Shown piece after piece: positions 2,771-49,317 of a stretch of 64,000 nt of DNA. The translations under genes and the position numbers were made by a program. Source of the stretch: Candidatus Omnitrophota bacterium (GTDB taxonomy: Bacteria > Omnitrophota > Gorgyraeia > JABMRG01 > JAFGKX01); contig JAZDPX010000033.1 in NCBI GenBank assembly GCA_043797125.1, positions 98,527 to 162,526 of the forward strand, written 5' to 3'. Under the pieces are notes generated by a model. That model was not told where the DNA came from. It did no database searches and was given only the letters and a program-made list of their open reading frames with translations. Position 1 is the first letter of the stretch; each line of letters begins with the position of its first letter.

Positions 2771-4024
2771 ATGAAACGGACAATTATTTTAATTATATAT
2801 ATTATACTCTGTTATTCTGTCATGTGCTATGCGTCTTCTGGCGGTTCTGTTGAGTTATATTTTGCTACGGGTGAAAAATCGCAGACAGATGAAATCGAGG
2901 ACCGCGACCTTTCCGGGGATTTCGATTATTATAAATGCGGCTTTTCTTCCAATCTTAATTTAGAAAAAAATATATCCTTAAAAATGGGGTTCGACCAATA
3001 TCATAAGGATTTTTCAAGTCTTAATCAATCAAACGCGGACACCGATGTCTACAAGATAGGCGCTGATTTTCTTATCCTGGATAATAAGGAAAGCAGTTTA
3101 AATAGCGGGCTTGATTTTAGCCTGCGCAACAAACATTACAAAAGCGCGCCTCTTTCAAGTTATGACCAGCAAAGGGTAGACGGCGCAATAAAATATAAAC
3201 TCAAGGATATTTATTCGCTTGATTTAAATGCGGGAATAAATAATTACGAATATATTAACGATTATGATAATGATACGATGAAGGCTTTTTTAAAGATATC
3301 TCCTGGCGTCTACCTTTTTGATAAGGCTCTGGAATTGTCGGGGTTTTTTAGGGTACAGCGCTTAGACGCATACGGTAACAATAAAGACACAACGGAAACC
3401 ATGCAGGGCGCAACAACAACCCTAAATCTAGATACGCCATGCCTAAATAAAATAAGGGCTCAATTTGAAAACGGCAAAGAAAACACGCAGGATACGGAGG
3501 ACAGGGAAGATTCTCTAAGGTATAAATATCAGAAATGGAACGCCACAACATATCATAAATTTTTCGAAAAATTAAAAAACCAGGTCGAATACGGGCAAAA
3601 ACGCAGAGTATATCTTGCTAACGATAACGATTATGAAAACTGGTACATAAAAAACAAGAACACGCTCCTGGTTATAGAGAAAGATCCTTTTGACATGGAA
3701 CTTAGCGCGGACTACGAGCATAAGGAAACGACCTTTGACAGCCAGCACACCAAAAGCTATATTTCAAACAAGTTGGGCGGCGGGCTTTCCTTCTCCAGAA
3801 GAGCCGACTGGTCCTTTGACCCTGAATTCAGCTTCACAGGCTATGATTACACGCCAGGCTCAACATCAACACAGAAATCATACAAGGCGCAGATCGGCGC
3901 TAAAAAATACATTAGCGAGGATCTTATTCTTGAGGGCTACTACTGGCACAAATGGAAGGATTATAAAAATAAGGCAGACGCCGAGCAGTGGACCTTGAAC
4001 CTATCCTGCGCTGTCAGATTCTAA
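2771..4024 (+). CDS. Secreted protein, probable outer-membrane beta-barrel; the only substantial plus-strand gene in the first 50 kb
   Basis: N-terminal signal-peptide-like segment MKRTIILIIYIILCYSVMCYASS; alternating amphipathic pattern; C-terminal ...SCAVRF ends in Phe, typical of OMPs. Confidence 0.45.
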   Translation: MKRTIILIIYIILCYSVMCYASSGGSVELYFATGEKSQTDEIEDRDLSGDFDYYKCGFSSNLNLEKNISLKMGFDQYHKDFSSLNQSNADTDVYKIGADFLILDNKESSLNSGLDFSLRNKHYKSAPLSSYDQQRVDGAIKYKLKDIYSLDLNAGINNYEYINDYDNDTMKAFLKISPGVYLFDKALELSGFFRVQRLDAYGNNKDTTETMQGATTTLNLDTPCLNKIRAQFENGKENTQDTEDREDSLRYKYQKWNATTYHKFFEKLKNQVEYGQKRRVYLANDNDYENWYIKNKNTLLVIEKDPFDMELSADYEHKETTFDSQHTKSYISNKLGGGLSFSRRADWSFDPEFSFTGYDYTPGSTSTQKSYKAQIGAKKYISEDLILEGYYWHKWKDYKNKADAEQWTLNLSCAVRF

Positions 4025-40389: not shown

Positions 40390-41336
40390 AGATTCTTTTT
40401 CCTTTCTCTTAAATACCTTGTTAAAGCATCTTTCCAGTCTGCTAAACTGCTGCCATGTATTTTGAAAAAAAGTGTATTATCCAATATTGACATCTTCGGC
40501 CTTTTTGCCGGCCTGTCTAGTTGGTCCGATGATATAGGAATAACTTTTATATCCTCTTTACCTGCCTGGTTAACAATCTCTTTTGCGAACTCATACCACG
40601 AGCATGAGCCGGAGTTGGTAACATTTAGAATGCGGCTATTGGTTAATTGGTTAGTAGTTAATTGGTAACTGTCTACAATATCCGCTATCGCCTTTGCTAA
40701 ATCAACTGCATACGTCGGCGAACCAACCTGGTCATTCACAACTTTTATCCGCTTCTGCGTTTTAGCTTTCTCCAATATCGCTTCTACAAAATTCCTGCCT
40801 CCGGCCCCAAACAGCCAGCTTGTCCTTATGATTAAATAATTATCCAATTCACCCCTGACGGCATTTTCGCCTGCGAGTTTGGTTTTTCCATAAATGCTTA
40901 TCGGGTTTGGCATATCCTGTTCGCTGTAGGGCGAGGCCTTCTCTCCGTCGAAAACAAAATCAGTGCTTATGTATATCATGGACGAAGAGGCGAGTTTGCA
41001 CCCTTCTGCTATTATGGCTGTAGCTTGCGTATTTAGGTTGTGAGCTTTTTCAGGATTTAGCTCGCAGCCGTCAACATCGGTATATGCGGCGCAGTGGATT
41101 GTGATGTCGGGGCTTATCTGTTTGATTTTTTGCAGCGCCAAAACTCTGTCAGTTAGGTCAAGTTTGTGAAAAGCTGTTGGCTTTGGGCTACCTGCCCCGC
41201 ACCTGAACGAAGTGAATGGTGCGGGGTGGGCTATGGGCTCCCTAACATCAATCCCGACAACTTCATGCTCAGGCGCTAATTTTCTGCACAACGCCTGACC
41301 CAACATGCCGCTTGAACCAGTAATAAGTACTCTCAT
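40386..41336 (-). CDS. rfbD: dTDP-4-dehydrorhamnose reductase (RfbD/RmlD) carrying two in-frame insertions
   Basis: 'MRVLITGSSGMLGQAL...' N-term; 'RPAKRPKMSILDN' C-term. Insert 1 is a GC-rich hairpin ccccgcacc/ggtgcgggg at 41195-41226; insert 2 is the ttaattgg-family repeat at 40639-40671. Confidence 0.75.
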   Translation of the reverse strand: MRVLITGSSGMLGQALCRKLAPEHEVVGIDVREPIAHPAPFTSFRCGAGSPKPTAFHKLDLTDRVLALQKIKQISPDITIHCAAYTDVDGCELNPEKAHNLNTQATAIIAEGCKLASSSMIYISTDFVFDGEKASPYSEQDMPNPISIYGKTKLAGENAVRGELDNYLIIRTSWLFGAGGRNFVEAILEKAKTQKRIKVVNDQVGSPTYAVDLAKAIADIVDSYQLTTNQLTNSRILNVTNSGSCSWYEFAKEIVNQAGKEDIKVIPISSDQLDRPAKRPKMSILDNTLFFKIHGSSLADWKDALTRYLRERKKNL

Positions 41337-41350
41337 AGAATCGTTATGAT

Positions 41351-41432
41351 TTGGTTAATTAGTTAATTGGTTAATTAGTTAATTAACCACTCACCAATTA
41401 ACCACTCACTAACTTCACCACTCAATTATCCT
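41351..41432. repeat. Composite palindromic repeat unit (ttaattgg/ttaattag array, core gttaattaacc, cactcac array); 'empty' copy
   Basis: ttggttaattagttaattggttaattagttaattaaccactcaccaattaaccactcactaacttcaccactc. Confidence 0.9.
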
Positions 41433-42407
41433 CGCTCTTTGCTTCAACGGCTTCCACCACCGGCTGTTATTCTTATACCAGCCTATTGTCAAATCCAGGC
41501 CCTCATTAAACGAATACTTCGGCCTCCAGCCCAACTTTTTAATTTTACCGGAATCAAGCGCGTAACGCCTGTCATGCCCAGGCCTATCGGTTACAAATTT
41601 TATATAGCTATCCCTAAGGCGCAGTTTCTTTAAAAGGGCCCCTGCCATATCAATATTGCGTATTTGGGTCCTGGTGCCTATATTGTAAATTTCGCCAATT
41701 TTCCCATTTTTTAAAATACATTCTATGCCGCGGCAGTTATCCTCAACAAATAGCCAGTCGCGTATATTTTTGCCGTCGCCGTACAAAGGCAGTTTTTTGC
41801 CCCCAAGAAGATTGGTGATAAACAACGGCATCACCTTTTCCGGATACTGATAGGGGCCGAAGTTGTTTGAGCTTCTTGCTATTACAACCGGTAATCCAAA
41901 TGTATGATAATAACTAAGGCATAATAAATCAGCTGCTGCTTTTGACGCTGCATACGGAGAATTAGGCAAAAGCGCGTCTGTCTCTTTTGAAAAACCTGAT
42001 TTTATGTCTCCGTACACTTCATCTGTCGAGATCTGCATGAATTTTTTTATTTTGTATTTTCTGGCTGCCTCAAGAAGAACCCTTGCGCCTTCGATATTTG
42101 TTTTTATAAAAGCCCCGGCGTCTTTAATCGAGCGGTCCACATGCGTCTCTGCCGCGAAATTAATTATGGTCGATGGTCGATGGCCAATGGTCGATAGTAA
42201 ATTATTCACTAATTTTGAATCGCAAATATCGCCTTTTACGAATTTATAGCGTTTATCACTTTTGGTATCTCTTAAATTGTTTAGGTTGCCAGCATAAGTG
42301 AGCTTATCAAGATTTATGATTTTAATATCCCTATATTTTTTAAGCATGTATCGAATGAAATTGGACCCGATAAACCCGCATCCTCCGGTTACTAATATAT
42401 TTTTCAT
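41415..42407 (-). CDS. rfbB: dTDP-glucose 4,6-dehydratase (RfbB/RmlB) with an in-frame heptamer-array insertion
   Basis: 'ILVTGGCGFIGSNFIRYML...FAAETHVDRSI...YAASKAAADLL'; array ggtcgatggtcgatggccaatggtcgat at 42168-42195 encodes 'STIGHRPSTI'. Confidence 0.9.
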   Translation of the reverse strand: MKNILVTGGCGFIGSNFIRYMLKKYRDIKIINLDKLTYAGNLNNLRDTKSDKRYKFVKGDICDSKLVNNLLSTIGHRPSTIINFAAETHVDRSIKDAGAFIKTNIEGARVLLEAARKYKIKKFMQISTDEVYGDIKSGFSKETDALLPNSPYAASKAAADLLCLSYYHTFGLPVVIARSSNNFGPYQYPEKVMPLFITNLLGGKKLPLYGDGKNIRDWLFVEDNCRGIECILKNGKIGEIYNIGTRTQIRNIDMAGALLKKLRLRDSYIKFVTDRPGHDRRYALDSGKIKKLGWRPKYSFNEGLDLTIGWYKNNSRWWKPLKQRARIIEW

Positions 42408-42417
42408 CTTTTTACCA

Positions 42418-42445
42418 CAGACTATAGACTATTGACTATAGACCC
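42418..42445. repeat. Heptamer tandem array (gactata family), intergenic between rfbB and degT
   Basis: cagactatagactattgactatagaccc. Confidence 0.9.
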
Positions 42446-43570
42446 TGCGGCCTCCTTTATTACTTTAATCACATGCCCCATCTGCTTCCTGCCAAGCTCC
42501 GGATACACGGGTATAACAAAAGTTCCTTTAGAACAATTCTCCGCTTCCGGAAAATCTCTCTTCTTATATCCTAAATACTTAAAACAAGGCTGAAGATGCA
42601 AGGGCACAGGATAAAATGTCCTTGAATCTATGCCCTTGCCAATAAGATATGCTCTTATCTTTTCTTTGTTTTCCGTTGCCCTTAAGACATACTGGTGATA
42701 TATGTGGGTATTGCCCTTGGCAACATATGGCGTAATAAGACTTAAATCTCTTAAAGCGCTATTATAATAAGCTGCGTTTTGCGCGCGCTTTTTATTCCAT
42801 TTATCTATGTGTTTTAATTTCACCCTTAAGACAGCTGCTTGAATGGAATCCATCCTGTGATTATGTCCTATGCGCAAGTGCACATATTTATCTTGCGGCG
42901 AAGCGCCCTGATTTCTTAGTAATTGTAATTCTTCTGCAATGGCCTTATTATTAGTAACTATACAACCCGCGTCGCCAAACGCGCCTAAGTTTTTACCGGG
43001 ATAAAAACTTACAGTCCCGCAATCGCCTATTGTGCCTGCCTTTTTACCTTTCTGGCTTGCGCCGAAACTCTGAGCAGTATCTTCTATAACTTTCAAATTA
43101 TTCTTTTTTGCAATCTTCATTATCGCATCCATATCAGCGCACTGGCCGTATAGGTGGACTGGGATTATGGCCTTTATAGTATTGAGTATTGAGTATTGAG
43201 TATTGAGTAAAATCTTTTCGATGGAATCGATAGAAATGTTATAGGTTTTAGCGTCGATGTCCGCAAAAACAGGCACAGCCCCGATAGCCGCCACTGCGCC
43301 TGCGGTCGCGTAATATGTAAAAACCGGGCAAATAACTCCGTCGCCCTCTTTTATGCCTAATGCCTTAAGCGCAAGAAAAATAGCGTCTGTGCCGTTTGAG
43401 ACTGCGACTGCATATTTTACCTTGCAATAGGCGGCTATTTCTTTCTCAAGAAGCCTGACTTCTTCTCCAAGTATAAAACTGCCTGAATCAATAACTCTCT
43501 TTACAGCAGAGTCTATTTTCTCTCTAATAGGCTTTGTCTGCGTTTCCATATCCAACAATGGTATCTTCAT
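42422..43570 (-). CDS. DegT/DnrJ/EryC1/StrS-family PLP-dependent sugar aminotransferase (WbpE-like) with in-frame (gtattga)x4 repeat
   Basis: '...AIIPVHLYGQCADMD...' and an active-site Lys region; repeat at 43179-43206 encodes 'NTQYSILNT'. Confidence 0.9.
   Translation of the reverse strand: MKIPLLDMETQTKPIREKIDSAVKRVIDSGSFILGEEVRLLEKEIAAYCKVKYAVAVSNGTDAIFLALKALGIKEGDGVICPVFTYYATAGAVAAIGAVPVFADIDAKTYNISIDSIEKILLNTQYSILNTIKAIIPVHLYGQCADMDAIMKIAKKNNLKVIEDTAQSFGASQKGKKAGTIGDCGTVSFYPGKNLGAFGDAGCIVTNNKAIAEELQLLRNQGASPQDKYVHLRIGHNHRMDSIQAAVLRVKLKHIDKWNKKRAQNAAYYNSALRDLSLITPYVAKGNTHIYHQYVLRATENKEKIRAYLIGKGIDSRTFYPVPLHLQPCFKYLGYKKRDFPEAENCSKGTFVIPVYPELGRKQMGHVIKVIKEAAGSIVNSL
43179..43206. repeat. 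Perfect heptanucleotide tandem repeat (gtattga)x4 inside the degT-like CDS
   Basis: tagtattgagtattgagtattgagtattgagtaa. Confidence 0.9.
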
Positions 43571-44305
43571 TCTGTTGCCTTTCTTGCCACAAGATTATTT
43601 GCTCTAAGAAGGGAATCAAAAGTCCCTGAATCGGTCCAAAAACCATTCAGCTTATCATAGCTCATCTGGCCCAGGTTTATATATTTGTTATTTACATCCG
43701 TAATTTCCAGTTCGCCTCTTTTAGAGGGTTTGAGTGTTTTTATGATATCGAATACCTTCTTATCATACATATAAATCCCCGTAACGATAAAATTGGTGAG
43801 CGGCCTTTTGGGCTTTTCCGTGATATTCAATATTTTACCGTTTTTAAACTCAACCACGCCGAAACGCCCGGGATCAGGCACTTCCTTTATCAATATCCTG
43901 GCGCCATTTTTTTGACTTCGAAATTTATTCACCGAAGCCTTTATAGACTCCTCGACTATGTTATCGCCGAGGATTACCACTATCTTGCCGCCGTCGGCAA
44001 AGTCCTGCGCCAGGCGAAGCGCGTCCGCTATGCCGCCTTCCCCTTTCTGATAAGTATATTCGATGTGCTTTAATCCGAATTCTTTGCCGCTTCCTAAAAG
44101 CCGCAGGAAATCCCCGGCATTATTTCCGCCCGTAACAATTAATATTTCCGTTATTCCAGCATCAACTAAGGTTTGAATAGGATAGTATATCATCGGCTTG
44201 TTGTAAACTTAGCTAATGCAAAAGGTGTTTGTTACAAACCGTAGTTAAAGGATAAAGTCTCGAACCTAATCCTCCACATAAAATAACACCTTTTGTCATT
44301 GGCAT
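43567..44305 (-). pseudogene. rfbA: Glucose-1-phosphate thymidylyltransferase (RfbA/RmlA) disrupted near codon 30 by a 7-nt insertion giving TAG/TAA stops and a frameshift
   Basis: Upstream frame 'MPMTKGVILCGGLGSRLYPLTTVCNKHLLH*' (GGGGGTG SD before ATG at 44305); frame +1 continues '*VYNKPMIYYPIQTL...'; an intact gene would read HLLP-VYNKPM, and 'cattagctaa' replaces a single codon. Confidence 0.7.
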
Positions 44306-44314
44306 CACCCCCTT

Positions 44315-45340
44315 TTATTTTGAAACTTGCTTTTTAAACCTTTTAGTATCCGCAAGTTTCTTTATTTTTTGAAATAGAATAAATTTACGCGGTAAATAAA
44401 CGTCTGTCGATCTTAGGCCTCCATAAATAAAATTCCCTAATTTCACTGTATCCTCAAATCCATATCTTAATTCAAAACAGTTTGGCGTTCGTTTATAGAT
44501 AGTCCCCCGCCGTGTAGGCATTATATTGTGCATCCATTTTAGCACTTCATAGTTAGAGCTGGTAACCATAGATTTATAAATATCATTGCTGACATGATAT
44601 GCAAAGCAACCATCTCCATCAAAATATCCTCTTACAAAATCATGATAAATATTTTTTGGCATATTTAATGGATATAACCTTAAAGGCTTCTTTGGGATTA
44701 CCCCCAATTTTAATAAATCATTGTTTATCTCGTTAGAGCTGAATTCCAATCTAAAATATTTGCCATTTTCGTAACTTCTTATAGGTTTATTGCTTTGAAA
44801 AACTAAATTTATCTTTTCTAACAAAACTTTGTCCTTTGTGGCAAACATCAATTTTCCTTCCCTGCTTACACAACCATCAGCACAAATGTACCCAAGTAAA
44901 TATGCGGTTTTGCTATTAAGGGATTTAAATATATCTCTGCTATAGTTATAAATACGATTATAGCTGCGGCCTTTCATCTTTCTGCTGTGCTCCCTTTTGC
45001 CCCTTTCTGCCTGCATGTAAAATTTACCTTTTTGTGCCGCTATAATAGCCGCCTGCTTTCTGCTTCTCAATTTTATATTCCGTTGCCTTAAGCATCTTTT
45101 GATTCTATTAACGCTATAACCTGACGTTCTTGAAATTTCAGATAATGAAAATTTCCTTTTCACATACAAGTAGACTATTTTATTAATATTGCTGCTTTTT
45201 CTTCTGTTGTGGCCAATAATATACTTTTTACTTAGTCCAACATCTTTATTGCAACCACATGCGCAACTATGGACGCTATAACTCTTTTCCTGTTTTTTAA
45301 TTTTTCCTCCAGTCATAATCAATATCGTTATCAAACGCAT
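44315..45340 (-). mobile_element. Free-standing double-motif LAGLIDADG homing-endonuclease gene between rfbC and rfbA
   Basis: Two dodecapeptide motifs 'AYLLGYICADGCVS' and 'FVRGYFDGDGCFAY'; Cys cluster 'HSCACGCNKD' and basic HTH-like N-terminal region; overlaps the rfbC start by 44 nt. Confidence 0.75.
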
Positions 45341-45746
45341 CCAGCCTATATTCGTCCGGATTTTTTCGATTGTAGGCCCGGGTTGGCGTATTTATCGCTA
45401 CTGCCTCTGTTTTGCCTACGCACTTAAATCCATGATAAACATTAGGCGGAATTTGCACAAGCAAAGGATTGTCCAGGCTTATTTCGAATTCATTTATTTG
45501 TTTGTATGTGGCAGAGTTTTTTCTTGCATCGAAAAGCACAAGGAGCATTTTCCCTGATACGCAGGTGAAATTATCCGTTTGCGAGCGATGCCAATGCCAG
45601 GCCTTTACAACTGCGGGTTTTGCGGTAGTTATATATACCTGGCCGAATTTTTTGAATATTTTATCGTCGCTGCGCAATATCTCCATGAGCCTGCCCCGTT
45701 CATCAGGAATCACTTTAAGCTTTTTTACCTTCACCCCTTTTATCAA
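45297..45746 (-). CDS. rfbC: dTDP-4-dehydrorhamnose 3,5-epimerase (RfbC/RmlC, short cupin form)
   Basis: '...VYITTAKPAVVKAWHWHRSQTDNFTCVSGKMLLVLFDARKNS...' cupin core. Confidence 0.85.
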   Translation of the reverse strand: MIKGVKVKKLKVIPDERGRLMEILRSDDKIFKKFGQVYITTAKPAVVKAWHWHRSQTDNFTCVSGKMLLVLFDARKNSATYKQINEFEISLDNPLLVQIPPNVYHGFKCVGKTEAVAINTPTRAYNRKNPDEYRLDAFDNDIDYDWRKN

Positions 45747-45759
45747 TTTATAACCTCCT

Positions 45760-45794
45760 CAACTATCGACCATCGACTATTGACTATCAACTAT
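45760..45794. repeat. Heptamer tandem array, intergenic rfbC/ugd
   Basis: caactatcgaccatcgactattgactatcaactat. Confidence 0.9.
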
Positions 45795-45795
45795 A

Positions 45796-47091
45796 TTATC
45801 TCCTCCCTATACACACGTATTGAAAACCTAAATCTCTCATTCGCTCGGGTTCAAACATATTTCTGCCGTCTATGATAACCGGCTGGTTAAGCAACCTTTT
45901 TATTTTTTTGAAATCAAGATTCTCAAATTCTTTCCACTCCGTAATGATAACCAGGCAATCACACCCTTTTGCAAGGGAATACGGGTCTTTGGAAAACTCA
46001 ACCATAGAAAGCTCGATTTTGGCCCTTCCCATAGCCTTTGGATCATAGGCCTTTATGCGCGCGCCTTCTTTTTGCAGCATCCTTATTATATCCAGGCAGG
46101 GGGCTTGTCTTATGTCATCTGTATTTGGCTTAAACGCTATGCCCAATATTCCTATGGTCTTATTGTTTAAATTCCAGAGCGCAGATTTTATCTTCTCTAC
46201 AAAAAAGGCTCTTTGCGCCTGGTTTACCTTTGCGATTATCTTTAATATTTCAGGGTTGTAGCCTAAGTTTTCCGCTATGTGTATAAAGGCGGCCAGGTCC
46301 TTTGGAAAGCAAGAGCCGCCGTAACCTATTCCCGCATTCAAAAATTCTTTATTTATTCTTGTGTCCAGGCCCATGCCTTGCGCAACCTTTTTTACATCAG
46401 CCCCGCATAAATCGCATATCCTCGATACAGCGTTGATAAACGATATCTTCAAAGAGAGAAATGAATTAGAGGCGTGTTTTATTATTTCGGCGCTCTCTAT
46501 GTCGGTTACAACTATTTGTGCCTTAAGCGGCTTGTATAATTGCCTTAGAATCTTTTCTGCCTTTTTGCTCTGCACGCCTATAACAATCCTGTCCGGGCGC
46601 ATGAAATCCTTGATAGCCGAACCTTCCCTTAAAAATTCAGGGTTTGAGGCTATGTCAAATTTTACTTTTTTGTTTTTACAGGCGTTAAGCGTATGTGCGA
46701 CCCACCTGCCGGTTTCAACAGGCACTGTGGACTTTTCAACGATAAGCTTATACGACTTCATGTGCCTGGCAATAACAGCGGAAACATTTTCCACTGCCGA
46801 TAGGTCTGCCGCGCCTTTTTCTTTCGGCGGCGTGCCTACTGCAATAAATATAATCCTGGCAAATTTAACGCCGTCTTCTATTTTAGATGAAAAAAAGAGC
46901 CTTTTCCTGCTCACGCTTTTCTTAATAAGAGACGCTAATCCAGGTTCGTATATCGGTATCTCTCCGTTTTGTAGGGCTTTTATCTTTTCAATGTTTTTAT
47001 CAACGCACATCACCCTGTTTCCCAGCTCGGCGAAACACGTACCCGTTACCAATCCCACGTATCCGGTTCCTATAACAGCAATTCTTTCCAT
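45796..47091 (-). CDS. ugd: UDP-glucose 6-dehydrogenase
   Basis: 'MERIAVIGTGYVGLVTGTCFAELGNRVMCVD' and catalytic Cys region 'GYGGSCFPKD'. Confidence 0.9.
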   Translation of the reverse strand: MERIAVIGTGYVGLVTGTCFAELGNRVMCVDKNIEKIKALQNGEIPIYEPGLASLIKKSVSRKRLFFSSKIEDGVKFARIIFIAVGTPPKEKGAADLSAVENVSAVIARHMKSYKLIVEKSTVPVETGRWVAHTLNACKNKKVKFDIASNPEFLREGSAIKDFMRPDRIVIGVQSKKAEKILRQLYKPLKAQIVVTDIESAEIIKHASNSFLSLKISFINAVSRICDLCGADVKKVAQGMGLDTRINKEFLNAGIGYGGSCFPKDLAAFIHIAENLGYNPEILKIIAKVNQAQRAFFVEKIKSALWNLNNKTIGILGIAFKPNTDDIRQAPCLDIIRMLQKEGARIKAYDPKAMGRAKIELSMVEFSKDPYSLAKGCDCLVIITEWKEFENLDFKKIKRLLNQPVIIDGRNMFEPERMRDLGFQYVCIGRR

Positions 47092-47109
47092 TTTAGACCT
47101 TTTCCCTCT

Positions 47110-49317
47110 CTATTGCTTATTTGTTTGAGAGCCTATCTTAGGCTCGTGGTAGCTTCTTCCGAATCTAAACGGCAAATTAGGAAACTCCTTTAATCTGAAA
47201 ACAACTAAGATCTCCTCGCCTCTTTCCCTGAACACATTATAATGTATATCGACTTCCCAGCAGTGCAGGTCGCGGGTAATAACGTATCTTTGCTCCCTTA
47301 AATCATATACATATTTATTGTCGTTTACAATTCTCTTAAAATCGAAATTTTCATATGCCTTTATCTTCCATTGGGGATTTATGCGCCATTCGACCTGCCC
47401 TATTATATCATTTGACTCGACAACGTAGCTATGCGACAAACCGAAAGAAAAATCTTTAACCGTTGCCACAAAATCCGTATTTATATACTTAAGCCATTCA
47501 TGATCGCGCCTTTTGTGAGGATCCATCGCGGCCTCGGATGTTATTGTCAGCCAATTGTAAGGCCTCATTTCAAGCTCTGCTAAATAATCCAAGAGCTGAC
47601 CTCCCGGAGTTTGCTTAAAGTCATATTGCGTGTCAAGGCCAAGCCTCACAAAATCAATCGACTCCTGATTTTGCCCTCTTTTGGTCTGTAGTTTGTTTTC
47701 CAAGGAAAACCCAATCGTGTTATTTCTGTCTATACTGTCGATCGAATCAAATCCAAATAGACTTTCCTTTCTTAATGTCGGCAATGGATTGTAATTATAG
47801 CTTACCCCAGGGGTAATTATGTGCCTTAGGCTGTTTATTTCTATACCGAGCGGAGAGCATTCGGCGTTAAACATCTTATAGAATTTGGTGTTTACATCCA
47901 CGCCTGTATAAAATATCCCCCTTGTATGCGAGGCGCTGCCAAAATCAGTTCCTGAAAGCCCCTGGTCATAGTAAGTTTCTCTAACAGCAGTATAAGGCGT
48001 AACATTAAGAAACGAAACCTTGCTGGCATAAGATAATTTATTGTATACATCAACGCGATTATTCTTATGCACGAGGGTATTAGCTACAGGATCTTCTATT
48101 GTGCTACTGGGATATTTCTTATTTAAATTTACAGCGCTGTATTCTCCGCTATAATAAAGCCTGCTGTCTCCTATGCGGTTATTATAAAGGTCTAATTTAA
48201 CCTCGGGCAGCCTCTCAACAGTTTCCTCGAACCTGTTCGCCCTTTTTTCAGTAAGAACGCTTAAATTATACAAGGGCTGCGTCTTGGTAATTAACAGATA
48301 AGATCTCGGGTGTTCTTCCTTTTCATATTCTTCGTAGAAGTAATCTTTTCTAAAATCCTTGTCTTTATATTTATACAATTCCGTAGTGGCAAGCGTATCA
48401 TTAAAGATCTGCCATTGGTGCCTCCACTGCGCAAGCACCTTTTCCTGCTCTTTTGTAGATTTGCTATCGCTTTGGGCAGAGTAAAGATGATCCCTGCCTA
48501 TGGCTCTTTCATGAGTATAGTATGTCTTTAGCGTTCCTTTGCCTATGAATTTGGTGTCATATATGTGGTCAAATCCGTAAGCAAAGTCCTTTTTTTCCCT
48601 GTGATCCAAATGCACGTAGCCTTTGTGATTAGGGTCAAGATTATAGCGCCATGCAGTCAACAGGTAAGCGCCCCATTCGCTGCTTTTTCCCGGTATTATC
48701 GTAACTCTCGGGCGGTTTTCATCCAAAGGATGCGCATAAACCGGCAGCCACAATACCGGAACAGACCCAACCCAGAACGTTGCGTCCTTTATAACTATCT
48801 TTACGTTTGGATATATCAATACCTTTTTGGCTGAAATTCTATAATGCGGATACTGGCGGTCGCATGTAGTAACATAGGCCTTGTTGACAATAAATTCATC
48901 CGGTTTTGTTTTTTGGGCGCACTCGCCTTTTGTGTGCCATGGTTTTGTATAACCGGTAAACCCTACCACGCTGCCTGTCTCCTTTTCAAAATTATATGTT
49001 ATCGTATCTCCGGTAAAAAAGTTCTCGCCCTGAACAAGCCTCACGTTGCCTTCGGCAATTGCTTCTTTGGTATCTGATTGAACCCTTACCTTATCGCAGG
49101 TAAGGGTGGCGTCTTTGTATTTTATAACTATATTGCCTGTGCCGACTACTTTGCCGTCTTTTTCAAAATACTCAACCTGGTCGCCGTTAACCTCAATAGG
49201 CCCTTCCATTTCTTCTGCCTGTGCAACCGCAGCAAAAAATAAAAAGAGCGCGGCAAAAGACAAAATAAATCTTTTACTTGTGACTTTGTGACCTGGTGAC
49301 CTGGTGACCTCTCTCAT
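47110..49317 (-). CDS. lptD: LPS-assembly protein LptD (OstA) homologue; N-terminal codons lie in an octamer repeat
   Basis: OstA-like N-terminal domain 'IEVNGDQVEYFEKDGKVVGTGNIVIKYKDATLTCDKVRVQSDTKEAIAEGNVRL...' plus a large C-terminal beta-barrel region; repeat gtgacctggtgacctggtgacct at 49279-49310. Confidence 0.7.
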   Translation of the reverse strand: MREVTRSPGHKVTSKRFILSFAALFLFFAAVAQAEEMEGPIEVNGDQVEYFEKDGKVVGTGNIVIKYKDATLTCDKVRVQSDTKEAIAEGNVRLVQGENFFTGDTITYNFEKETGSVVGFTGYTKPWHTKGECAQKTKPDEFIVNKAYVTTCDRQYPHYRISAKKVLIYPNVKIVIKDATFWVGSVPVLWLPVYAHPLDENRPRVTIIPGKSSEWGAYLLTAWRYNLDPNHKGYVHLDHREKKDFAYGFDHIYDTKFIGKGTLKTYYTHERAIGRDHLYSAQSDSKSTKEQEKVLAQWRHQWQIFNDTLATTELYKYKDKDFRKDYFYEEYEKEEHPRSYLLITKTQPLYNLSVLTEKRANRFEETVERLPEVKLDLYNNRIGDSRLYYSGEYSAVNLNKKYPSSTIEDPVANTLVHKNNRVDVYNKLSYASKVSFLNVTPYTAVRETYYDQGLSGTDFGSASHTRGIFYTGVDVNTKFYKMFNAECSPLGIEINSLRHIITPGVSYNYNPLPTLRKESLFGFDSIDSIDRNNTIGFSLENKLQTKRGQNQESIDFVRLGLDTQYDFKQTPGGQLLDYLAELEMRPYNWLTITSEAAMDPHKRRDHEWLKYINTDFVATVKDFSFGLSHSYVVESNDIIGQVEWRINPQWKIKAYENFDFKRIVNDNKYVYDLREQRYVITRDLHCWEVDIHYNVFRERGEEILVVFRLKEFPNLPFRFGRSYHEPKIGSQTNKQ

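Follow-up and report, generated by a model that had tools for sequence, protein, structure and literature searches.

In bacteriophage T4, the gene for the homing endonuclease (HE) MobA and the 50-nucleotide (nt) coding gap of gene 60 constitute one mobile element in which the gap blocks cleavage by MobA; the stop codon UAG follows the take-off codon, and bypass of the gap is retained after the HE has decayed (bioRxiv 10.1101/2022.08.31.505936). Pairing of the exiting mRNA has been proposed as the driver of gene 60 bypass (bioRxiv 10.1101/2024.12.09.627546; PMC5009743), and the concept of a "savior indel" has been described (PMC5009743). Cassettes that combine an HE with a bypass have so far been known only from T4-like phages. 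Here we analyze a locus within a 64,000-nt stretch of DNA (hereafter the window) from a Candidatus Omnitrophota bacterium (GenBank assembly GCA_043797125.1, contig JAZDPX010000033.1, positions 98,527 to 162,526), in which a free-standing LAGLIDADG HE gene precedes an rfbA-like gene interrupted by 7 extra nt. The comparative evidence tips the balance slightly towards regarding the HE gene and the 7-nt coding gap as a cassette analogous to T4 mobA/gene 60, in which case the locus would be a new variant of that arrangement.

As in T4, the HE gene directly precedes the short 5′ coding part of a conserved enzyme gene, and a non-coding gap comes after that part. UAG comes right after the take-off codon, the host protein would have its normal length, and HE and gap are inherited together. 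Both systems would allow the mRNA to pair at the take-off site and 5′ of it, and in some lineages of each the gap has outlived a decayed HE. There are also differences. The T4 enzyme is an HNH nuclease and its host a phage, whereas the HE studied here belongs to the LAGLIDADG family and its host gene to a chromosomal sugar operon of Omnitrophota. The gap measures 7 nt rather than 50 nt, its take-off and landing codons are unmatched, and a long-range helix to the start codon is predicted where T4 has a local take-off stem-loop and a Shine-Dalgarno sequence in the gap. In addition, the HE does not split the host gene, the two systems share no sequence homology, and both bypass and protection from cleavage are, for the present locus, predictions from sequence.

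A conserved 7-nt gap in rfbA

The interruption falls between codons 28 and 29 of the rfbA-like gene, inside the most conserved motif of the family (NKHLL-P/N-VYNKPMIYYP; Table 1). It recurs, with the consensus CAY-TAGCYAW-GTY, in five diverged Omnitrophota lineages represented by at least 13 independent assemblies or contigs from NCBI, JGI, ENA and Logan, and this number of independent contigs excludes an assembly artefact. Four lineages were recognized by the context of HE orthologs (the window, L001/L002, L003–L006 and L007–L011; CAY-TAGCYAW-GTT, many samples). The fifth, L094 (CAT-TAGCTAA-GTC), was found by a metagenome scan with the conserved rfbA start region (the 5′-arm pattern); the scan added no other lineage, which indicates that the cassette is rare. 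An HE gene or an HE remnant accompanies the gap in 5/5 lineages, and 0 of 80+ HE-less loci carry it: at all 80 of the 80 HE-less genome loci fetched via RfbA, the motif reads intact NKHLLP(V/I)YNKPMIYYP, with neither HE nor gap.

Relatives that lack the HE also define its insertion site. In HE-less Omnitrophota the rfbC stop codon stands 3–8 nt ahead of the rfbA ATG or overlaps it, so that the comparison of this junction proposed in the initial annotation yielded an empty site. One such locus, L107, is fully syntenic with the window, with amino acid identities of 79% for UDP-glucose dehydrogenase, 74% for rfbC, 80% for rfbA and 68% for the DegT aminotransferase; its rfbA motif is intact (NKHLLNVFNKPM) and has no 7-nt gap. 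The close HE orthologs P0002–P0006 (66–79% identity) all lie between rfbC and rfbA, which is also where the HE had been placed in the window, between an rfbC-like gene and an interrupted rfbA-like gene. The rfbA ATG, at 44299, follows the HE stop codon by 16 nt. It had been suggested that the HE insertion itself damaged rfbA. The interruption is real and consists of the 7 extra nt, but the HE gene did not cause it by breaking rfbA: the HE gene is intergenic, the lesion is a separate conserved insertion 84 nt inside rfbA, and both sides of it are under purifying selection. The insertion thus looks like a component that the HE cassette has kept, and not like collateral damage.

A dead rfbA gene, with a 7-nt indel left by repair of HE cleavage or by random mutation and with halves kept intact by inertia, is one alternative account of such a lesion. 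A frame-breaking indel beside a nuclease gene invites it, and the NCBI and JGI gene callers show a truncated rfbA open reading frame (ORF) only. However, the identical indel is present in five lineages whose HE genes have diverged to a synonymous distance (dS) of 0.54–2.0, which makes the common ancestor of the cassette old, and neutral survival of the reading frame in all five would almost never occur. In a substitution-only simulation, a neutral 213-codon ORF stayed open with P ~0.009 when t=0.27 and with P 0.0002 when t=0.5; the rfbA C-part is open in 5/5 gap lineages. Nonsynonymous divergence (dN) is far below dS in both halves. Among the five lineages the C-part shows a proportion of synonymous differences (pS) of 0.75–0.95, which is saturated, with dN of 0.1–0.23, and the N-part has dN/dS of 0.04–0.46; since dS of the host gene is saturated, most C-part pairs give no dN/dS ratio. 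The gap also outlasts decay of the HE. When the N-part and C-part are joined, they align to the RmlA (rmlA) profile as one collinear stretch (residues 3–236), and the joined protein is 84% identical to intact Omnitrophota enzymes of 239–246 aa. The other genes of the dTDP-sugar operon are intact, and the 64-kb window contains no second rfbA. We regard a dead gene as very improbable. Because both halves are under selection, no second rfbA is present in the window and the downstream pathway genes are intact, we conclude that the gapped rfbA is probably expressed and still functional.

Table 1. Coordinates of the HE gene, the gapped rfbA gene and associated elements (positions of the window unless a locus is named)
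Feature	Coordinates	Strand	Remarks
Free-standing helix-turn-helix (HTH) plus double-motif LAGLIDADG HE gene	44315..45340	minus	341 aa counted from first ATG; stop TAA 44315-44317
rfbA Shine-Dalgarno and start, AAGGGGGTGATGCCAATG	44297..44314	minus	cassette-carried; invariant in 5/5 gap lineages
rfbA N-part, 28 codons, MTKGVILCGGLGSRLYPLTTVCNKHLLH	44216..44299	minus	ends with take-off codon CAT 44216-44218
7-nt coding gap TAGCTAA	44209..44215	minus	opens with stop TAG, which adjoins the take-off codon; C and the putative landing triplet TAA follow (consensus YAW)
rfbA C-part, 213 codons plus stop, +1 frame	43567..44208	minus	begins VYNKPMIYYP
Predicted helix, 5′ arm GCCAATGACAAAAGGTGTT	44285..44303	minus	covers rfbA start codon
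Predicted helix, 3′ arm AACACCTTTTGCATTAGC	44212..44229	minus	covers take-off CAT and TAG stop
rfbC-like cupin (dTDP-4-dehydrorhamnose 3,5-epimerase family), 149 aa	45297..45746	minus	left border of insertion site; Pfam PF00908, 64 bits
Uninterrupted rfbA motif region, L107 or L014	around AAYAARCAYCTNYTNCCNGTNTAYAAYAARCC

Crossing the gap

How might a functional RfbA protein be made from this gene? In 5/5 lineages the take-off site reads CAY UAG C, and UAG followed by C is a weak termination context in E. coli. The triplet before GTY is CAA, TAA or TAT, and is not conserved as a codon (Q, Y or stop). The codons right after the gap, which encode VYNKP, vary among the five lineages at third positions only (5/5), and all of these changes are synonymous; the chance of this is ~1 in 3003. 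Such variation implies that the VYNKP codons are translated in the frame of the C-part.

This bears directly on the possibility that rfbA is expressed as genes-in-pieces, with termination at TAG releasing a 28-aa peptide, reinitiation at a conserved ATG (Met34) located 15 nt downstream, and assembly of the two polypeptides, as with the HE-split nrdA (MobE) or T4 gene 39/60. Functional enzymes split by HEs are documented, gene callers start a product of 208–211 aa at this ATG 15 nt past the gap, and purifying selection acts on both pieces of rfbA. Yet reinitiation at the ATG leaves the translation of VYNKP in that frame unaccounted for; there is no start codon between the TAA and GTY and no Shine-Dalgarno sequence ahead of the ATG, and the 28-aa fragment, which carries the G-rich nucleotide loop, would need to dock non-covalently. 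We consider genes-in-pieces unlikely.

A programmed +1 frameshift at CAY-UAG seems less probable still. In this scheme, a "shifty stop" in the style of prfB or antizyme, the U of UAG would be skipped and AGC-YAW-GUY decoded, adding two residues. A stop codon in the A site followed by C would suit it, and the +1 frame is open in L001, L003 and L008. In the window and in L094, however, whose RfbA proteins are only ~70% identical, the second codon of that frame is a TAA directly ahead of GTY, which blocks an upstream +1 frameshift in 2/5 lineages. Furthermore, YAW is not conserved as a codon, the upstream sequence AACACCTTTTG contains no Shine-Dalgarno element, tRNA-His would be unable to re-pair on moving from CAU to AUU, and the 80+ homologs all have the same length at the motif.

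Only a 7-nt ribosomal hop, which would leave CAY and end on the triplet preceding GTY, works as a reading in all five lineages, and on this comparison ribosomes probably skip the 7 bases. The product would read ...NKHLLH-VYNKPM... and match the intact homologs in length. Excision of the 7 nt from the RNA is an alternative with which DNA alone is also compatible; to our knowledge, no such process is known in bacteria. In the mechanism we propose, a ribosome at CAY (His28) would have UAG followed by C in its A site, and peptidyl-tRNA-His would un-pair. The mRNA would then slide by 7 nt, the tRNA would re-pair weakly with YAW, and decoding would resume at GUY. At positions 1–2 of the landing triplet, C or U could pair with G36, and A with U35, of tRNA-His. 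The UAG in the A site, the C after it and, as a weaker point, this partial pairing are reminiscent of known bypass signals.

The short "stop-hops" or tRNA hopping described in E. coli (Weiss/Atkins/Gesteland type; PMC5009743) provide a parallel in which peptidyl-tRNA leaves the codon before a slow stop codon and resumes a few nt downstream, independent of frame. Those events are of low efficiency, mostly synthetic or incidental, and use matched codons. The rfbA site, in contrast, is conserved in a natural gene under selection and combines a partial codon match with a conserved helix.

That helix is predicted to span 18 bp, its arms being complementary with one mismatch and one bulge (Table 1). 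It is part of the minimum free energy fold in 5/5 gap lineages, but not in L012, which carries the HE and no gap, and the fold of the window segment has z = -2.6. Duplex energies are -17 to -22 kcal/mol in the gap lineages, compared with -10.6 +/- 3.0 in 75 HE-less controls and -6.9 in the gap-less L012; one HE-less control reaches -22.9 kcal/mol via a different pairing. Third positions are variable in 1/10 arm codons and in 11/16 loop codons (Fisher p=0.005). The sole variable arm codon, codon 22, lies outside the 3′ arm, so that 0/9 codons inside the arms vary, and the NKHLL codons, frozen here, differ freely among 79 HE-less homologs. Since the variable loop separates the gap from the invariant 5′ arm, a simple co-conversion gradient does not explain this pattern. 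An RNAalifold run on the five sequences, three of which entered the alignment too far 3′, recovered only the inner helix.

When CAU occupies the P site, the ribosome would enclose the 3′ arm, and a forward slide of 7 nt would free AACACCU to pair with AGGUGUU. The helix could then zipper behind the ribosome as the 3′ arm exits the channel, as has been proposed for the 5′ stem-loop of T4 gene 60. In this model the helix probably helps bypass, and it may also sequester the start codon and regulate initiation.

The homing endonuclease and its proposed cassette

The HE ORF was recovered with the length, strand and position first reported. It contains two LAGLIDADG motifs, LLGYICADGCVS and VRGYFDGDGCFAY (LLGYICADG, GYFDGDG). 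NCBI uses the ATG at 45316 (Met9 of the ORF), which gives a 333-aa protein of identical sequence (P0001) and is the probable start. The ORF had been described as overlapping the start of rfbC by 44 nt; the overlap is in fact with the 3′ end of rfbC, whose stop codon is at 45297-45299, and shrinks to 20 nt with the NCBI start. The initial annotation had named domain and fold searches as checks, and these bear out the family assignment. Pfam LAGLIDADG_3 (PF14528) matches with 39.9 bits against a cut-off of 22.5 (E=5e-10). The AlphaFold2 model (mean predicted local distance difference test score 80, core ~90) shows a tandem LAGLIDADG fold (alpha-beta-beta-alpha-beta-beta-alpha) after a three-helix HTH, with residues 1–38, including the Cys cluster, forming a low-confidence part. 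Foldseek matched the model to I-Tsp061I, I-AniI, I-SceI and I-DmoI, each with probability 1.00. A profile search against the PDB gave 2dch (I-Tsp061I) as the best match (4e-13) and also returned I-DmoI, and intein HEs were likewise among the best solved relatives. In an alignment of the window HE with 16 homologs (17 in all), the catalytic aspartates D147 and D235 (ADG, GDG) are invariant, and many of these relatives have the N-terminal HTH region. By these measures the protein is a LAGLIDADG homing endonuclease, for which site-specific cleavage and homing are predicted. On its own, the gene is an ordinary member of a known family, already annotated by NCBI.

The four archaeal or organellar monomeric enzymes named above share the double LAGLIDADG fold and the catalytic Asp pair with the window HE. 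They are intron-encoded, whereas the window HE is free-standing and intergenic, and it has an additional N-terminal Cys-rich segment and HTH domain. An intein-borne HE was rejected: the ORF is bounded by the rfbC stop codon on its upstream side and by a separate Shine-Dalgarno sequence and ATG for rfbA on the other, and Pfam gave no Hint/intein match. An origin in a group I or group II intron was rejected as well. Rfam models for these introns, or for any RNA family, gave no match at E<=1 in positions 41000–49000 (8 kb) and none at the gathering threshold across the window, and the HE lies between genes and not inside one. The view of a free-standing gene, with neither intein nor group I intron, thus holds up.

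Could the LAGLIDADG protein instead be a domesticated, WhiA-like regulator of the rfb operon (LAGLIDADG plus HTH), with gap and helix as a regulatory device? The locus is fixed in all orthologs, the gene is under purifying selection (dN/dS 0.10–0.21 against orthologs), it encodes an HTH domain, and the WhiA LAGLIDADG domain is among the Foldseek matches. Against this, the catalytic Asp pair is invariant; 80+ relatives, one of them fully syntenic, lack the gene; the copies in L094 and L095 have decayed or carry frameshifts, and the L012 copy is without its stop codon; and its GC content and synonymous divergence are unlike those of its flanks. We judge domestication to be highly improbable. Presence/absence polymorphism at one site, decay of the HE, pS below that of the flanks and the shift in GC are indirect signs of homing and fit the life cycle of a selfish HE.

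Altered HE reading frames occur at three kinds of loci. In L094 the HE is a pseudogene (3369-4011, minus strand of the locus) that keeps residues ~26-170, has lost ~171-269 by deletion and continues in two other frames after two frameshifts; the rfbA gap and both rfbA halves are intact despite this decay. L012 and L013 form a sixth HE lineage with an uninterrupted, gap-free rfbA. The L012 motif is LLNIYRLPM, which is unique, every other homolog having (N/D..)(K/R)P there, and its HE ortholog (P0003; L012:1883-2941) no longer has a stop codon of its own and extends 26 codons into rfbA, out of frame with that gene. In the ortholog nearest to the window HE (L095:434-1415; 78% identity in the core region), a frameshift at about residue 90 splits the gene, possibly through decay or a sequencing error. 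L095 is a single Logan contig that ends ahead of the gap position; its 5′ arm has GCCGATG, not GCCAATG.

Composition and divergence point to a unit larger than the HE gene. GC content is 33-34.5% over the HE gene and the first 28 rfbA codons (44216-45316) and 42% in rfbC and the rest of rfbA, a contrast that would mark how far the foreign cassette reaches. Among the cassette lineages, pS is 0.41 for rfbA codons 1–30, 0.75 for codons 31–60 and ~0.9 later, with values of 0.38–0.70 for the HE and 0.72–0.94 for rfbC. Taken together, the pS gradient, the pS of the HE and the shared low GC suggest that the HE, the new 5′ end of rfbA and the gap move and evolve as one unit. Incongruence between HE and rfbC trees, in which L001 is an outlier for rfbC only, was set aside as evidence of transfer; it may merely reflect a different rfbC in L001.

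We propose a homing cassette of approximately 44209..45296, from the rfbC stop to the gap, which would comprise the HE gene, a replaced rfbA 5′ end with its own Shine-Dalgarno sequence, and the 7-nt insertion. The gap lies in the most conserved stretch of the family, the kind that HEs target, and 84 nt from the HE gene, for which reasons we propose this stretch as the HE target site. In cassette-free genomes the HE would cut the uninterrupted rfbA motif, and repair would copy the cassette in. The 7-nt insertion would split the target and so protect cassette-bearing DNA in the manner of a "savior indel", with bypass as compensation; the substitutions at the same place in L012 may be an alternative route to immunity. 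Similar logic operates in the free-standing Seg and Mob HEs of phages (intronless homing; MobE splitting nrdA), in which an HE between conserved genes has its presumed cut site in a neighbor, a co-conversion gradient flanks it and immunity comes from a change of target sequence. The present case differs from these in nuclease family and host, and its immunity would apparently derive from a frame-breaking insertion.

The broader claim is that a minimal 7-nt programmed bypass, promoted by a helix and kept as self-immunity of a LAGLIDADG cassette, evolved independently in a chromosomal gene of a free-living bacterium, giving the mobA/gene 60 strategy a second, non-homologous origin. Full-text literature searches did not return a linked 7-nt bypassed gap and helix. 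We consider this claim about as likely as not. Several observations weigh against the cassette and bypass model. The take-off CAY and landing YAW are not matched: pairing with the anticodon of tRNA-His is confined to positions 1–2 and includes G:U in three lineages. The TAG at +3 matches tRNA-His equally well, and the idea of landing at the first YA triplet was dropped for this reason. The helix arms never change, which leaves no covariation, and the reason why they are conserved may lie in a function of the DNA or in control over initiation at a sequestered AUG. The five gap lineages descend from one cassette and represent one evolutionary origin, not five, and L012/L013 demonstrate that the HE can be carried with no gap present. 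Composition may account in part for the lower pS of the AT-rich HE, and with synonymous divergence of host genes saturated, arguments from timing are approximate. Finally, the evidence for bypass consists of comparative, metagenomic DNA sequences.

If the claim is true, an HE combined with a coding gap that ribosomes skip would be a recurrent evolutionary solution, and the locus would offer a natural system of very small size in which take-off, sliding and landing could be dissected. A non-homologous case would be informative in that it pairs a different nuclease family and a bacterial chromosome with a 7-nt gap and a simple conserved helix. It would also serve as a warning for annotation that some "frameshifted pseudogenes" beside HE genes are functional. 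Should the gap mark the cleavage site, the target would be identified for a new LAGLIDADG scaffold that has an additional HTH domain.

Operon context and distant relatives

The operon runs in the order UDP-glucose dehydrogenase, rfbC-like, HE, rfbA-like, DegT aminotransferase, rfbB, rfbD. The rfbC-like protein scores below the NCBIfam rmlC cut-off, rfbB and rfbD score above their NCBIfam equivalog cut-offs, and DegT is intact. In the window, 39/40 long ORFs are on the minus strand; the stop codons used are TAA (17), TGA (15) and TAG (8); no tRNA gene and no Rfam family was found in its 64 kb.

An 18-nt version of the gap pattern had nine matches in IMG/VR, all of them chance occurrences of an in-frame "TPFALA" unrelated to rfbA. 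One of these chance matches, at L101:4412-4429, lies inside what appears to be another LAGLIDADG-type motif (PFALAIFVMDDGS), again unrelated to rfbA. Beside the more distant HE relatives examined for a similar gap, L096 has none and L097 is not comparable. The L097 contig, an HE-rich region, carries a distant HTH-LAGLIDADG relative (P0008), and at L097:1748-6662 Cys-rich HNH-like ORFs are interspersed between sugar and E1-dehydrogenase-like genes. The E1_dh-like ORF there is only 211 aa long, with a 32-nt overlap at the HE stop, and the genes of this locus may be HE-split genes-in-pieces.

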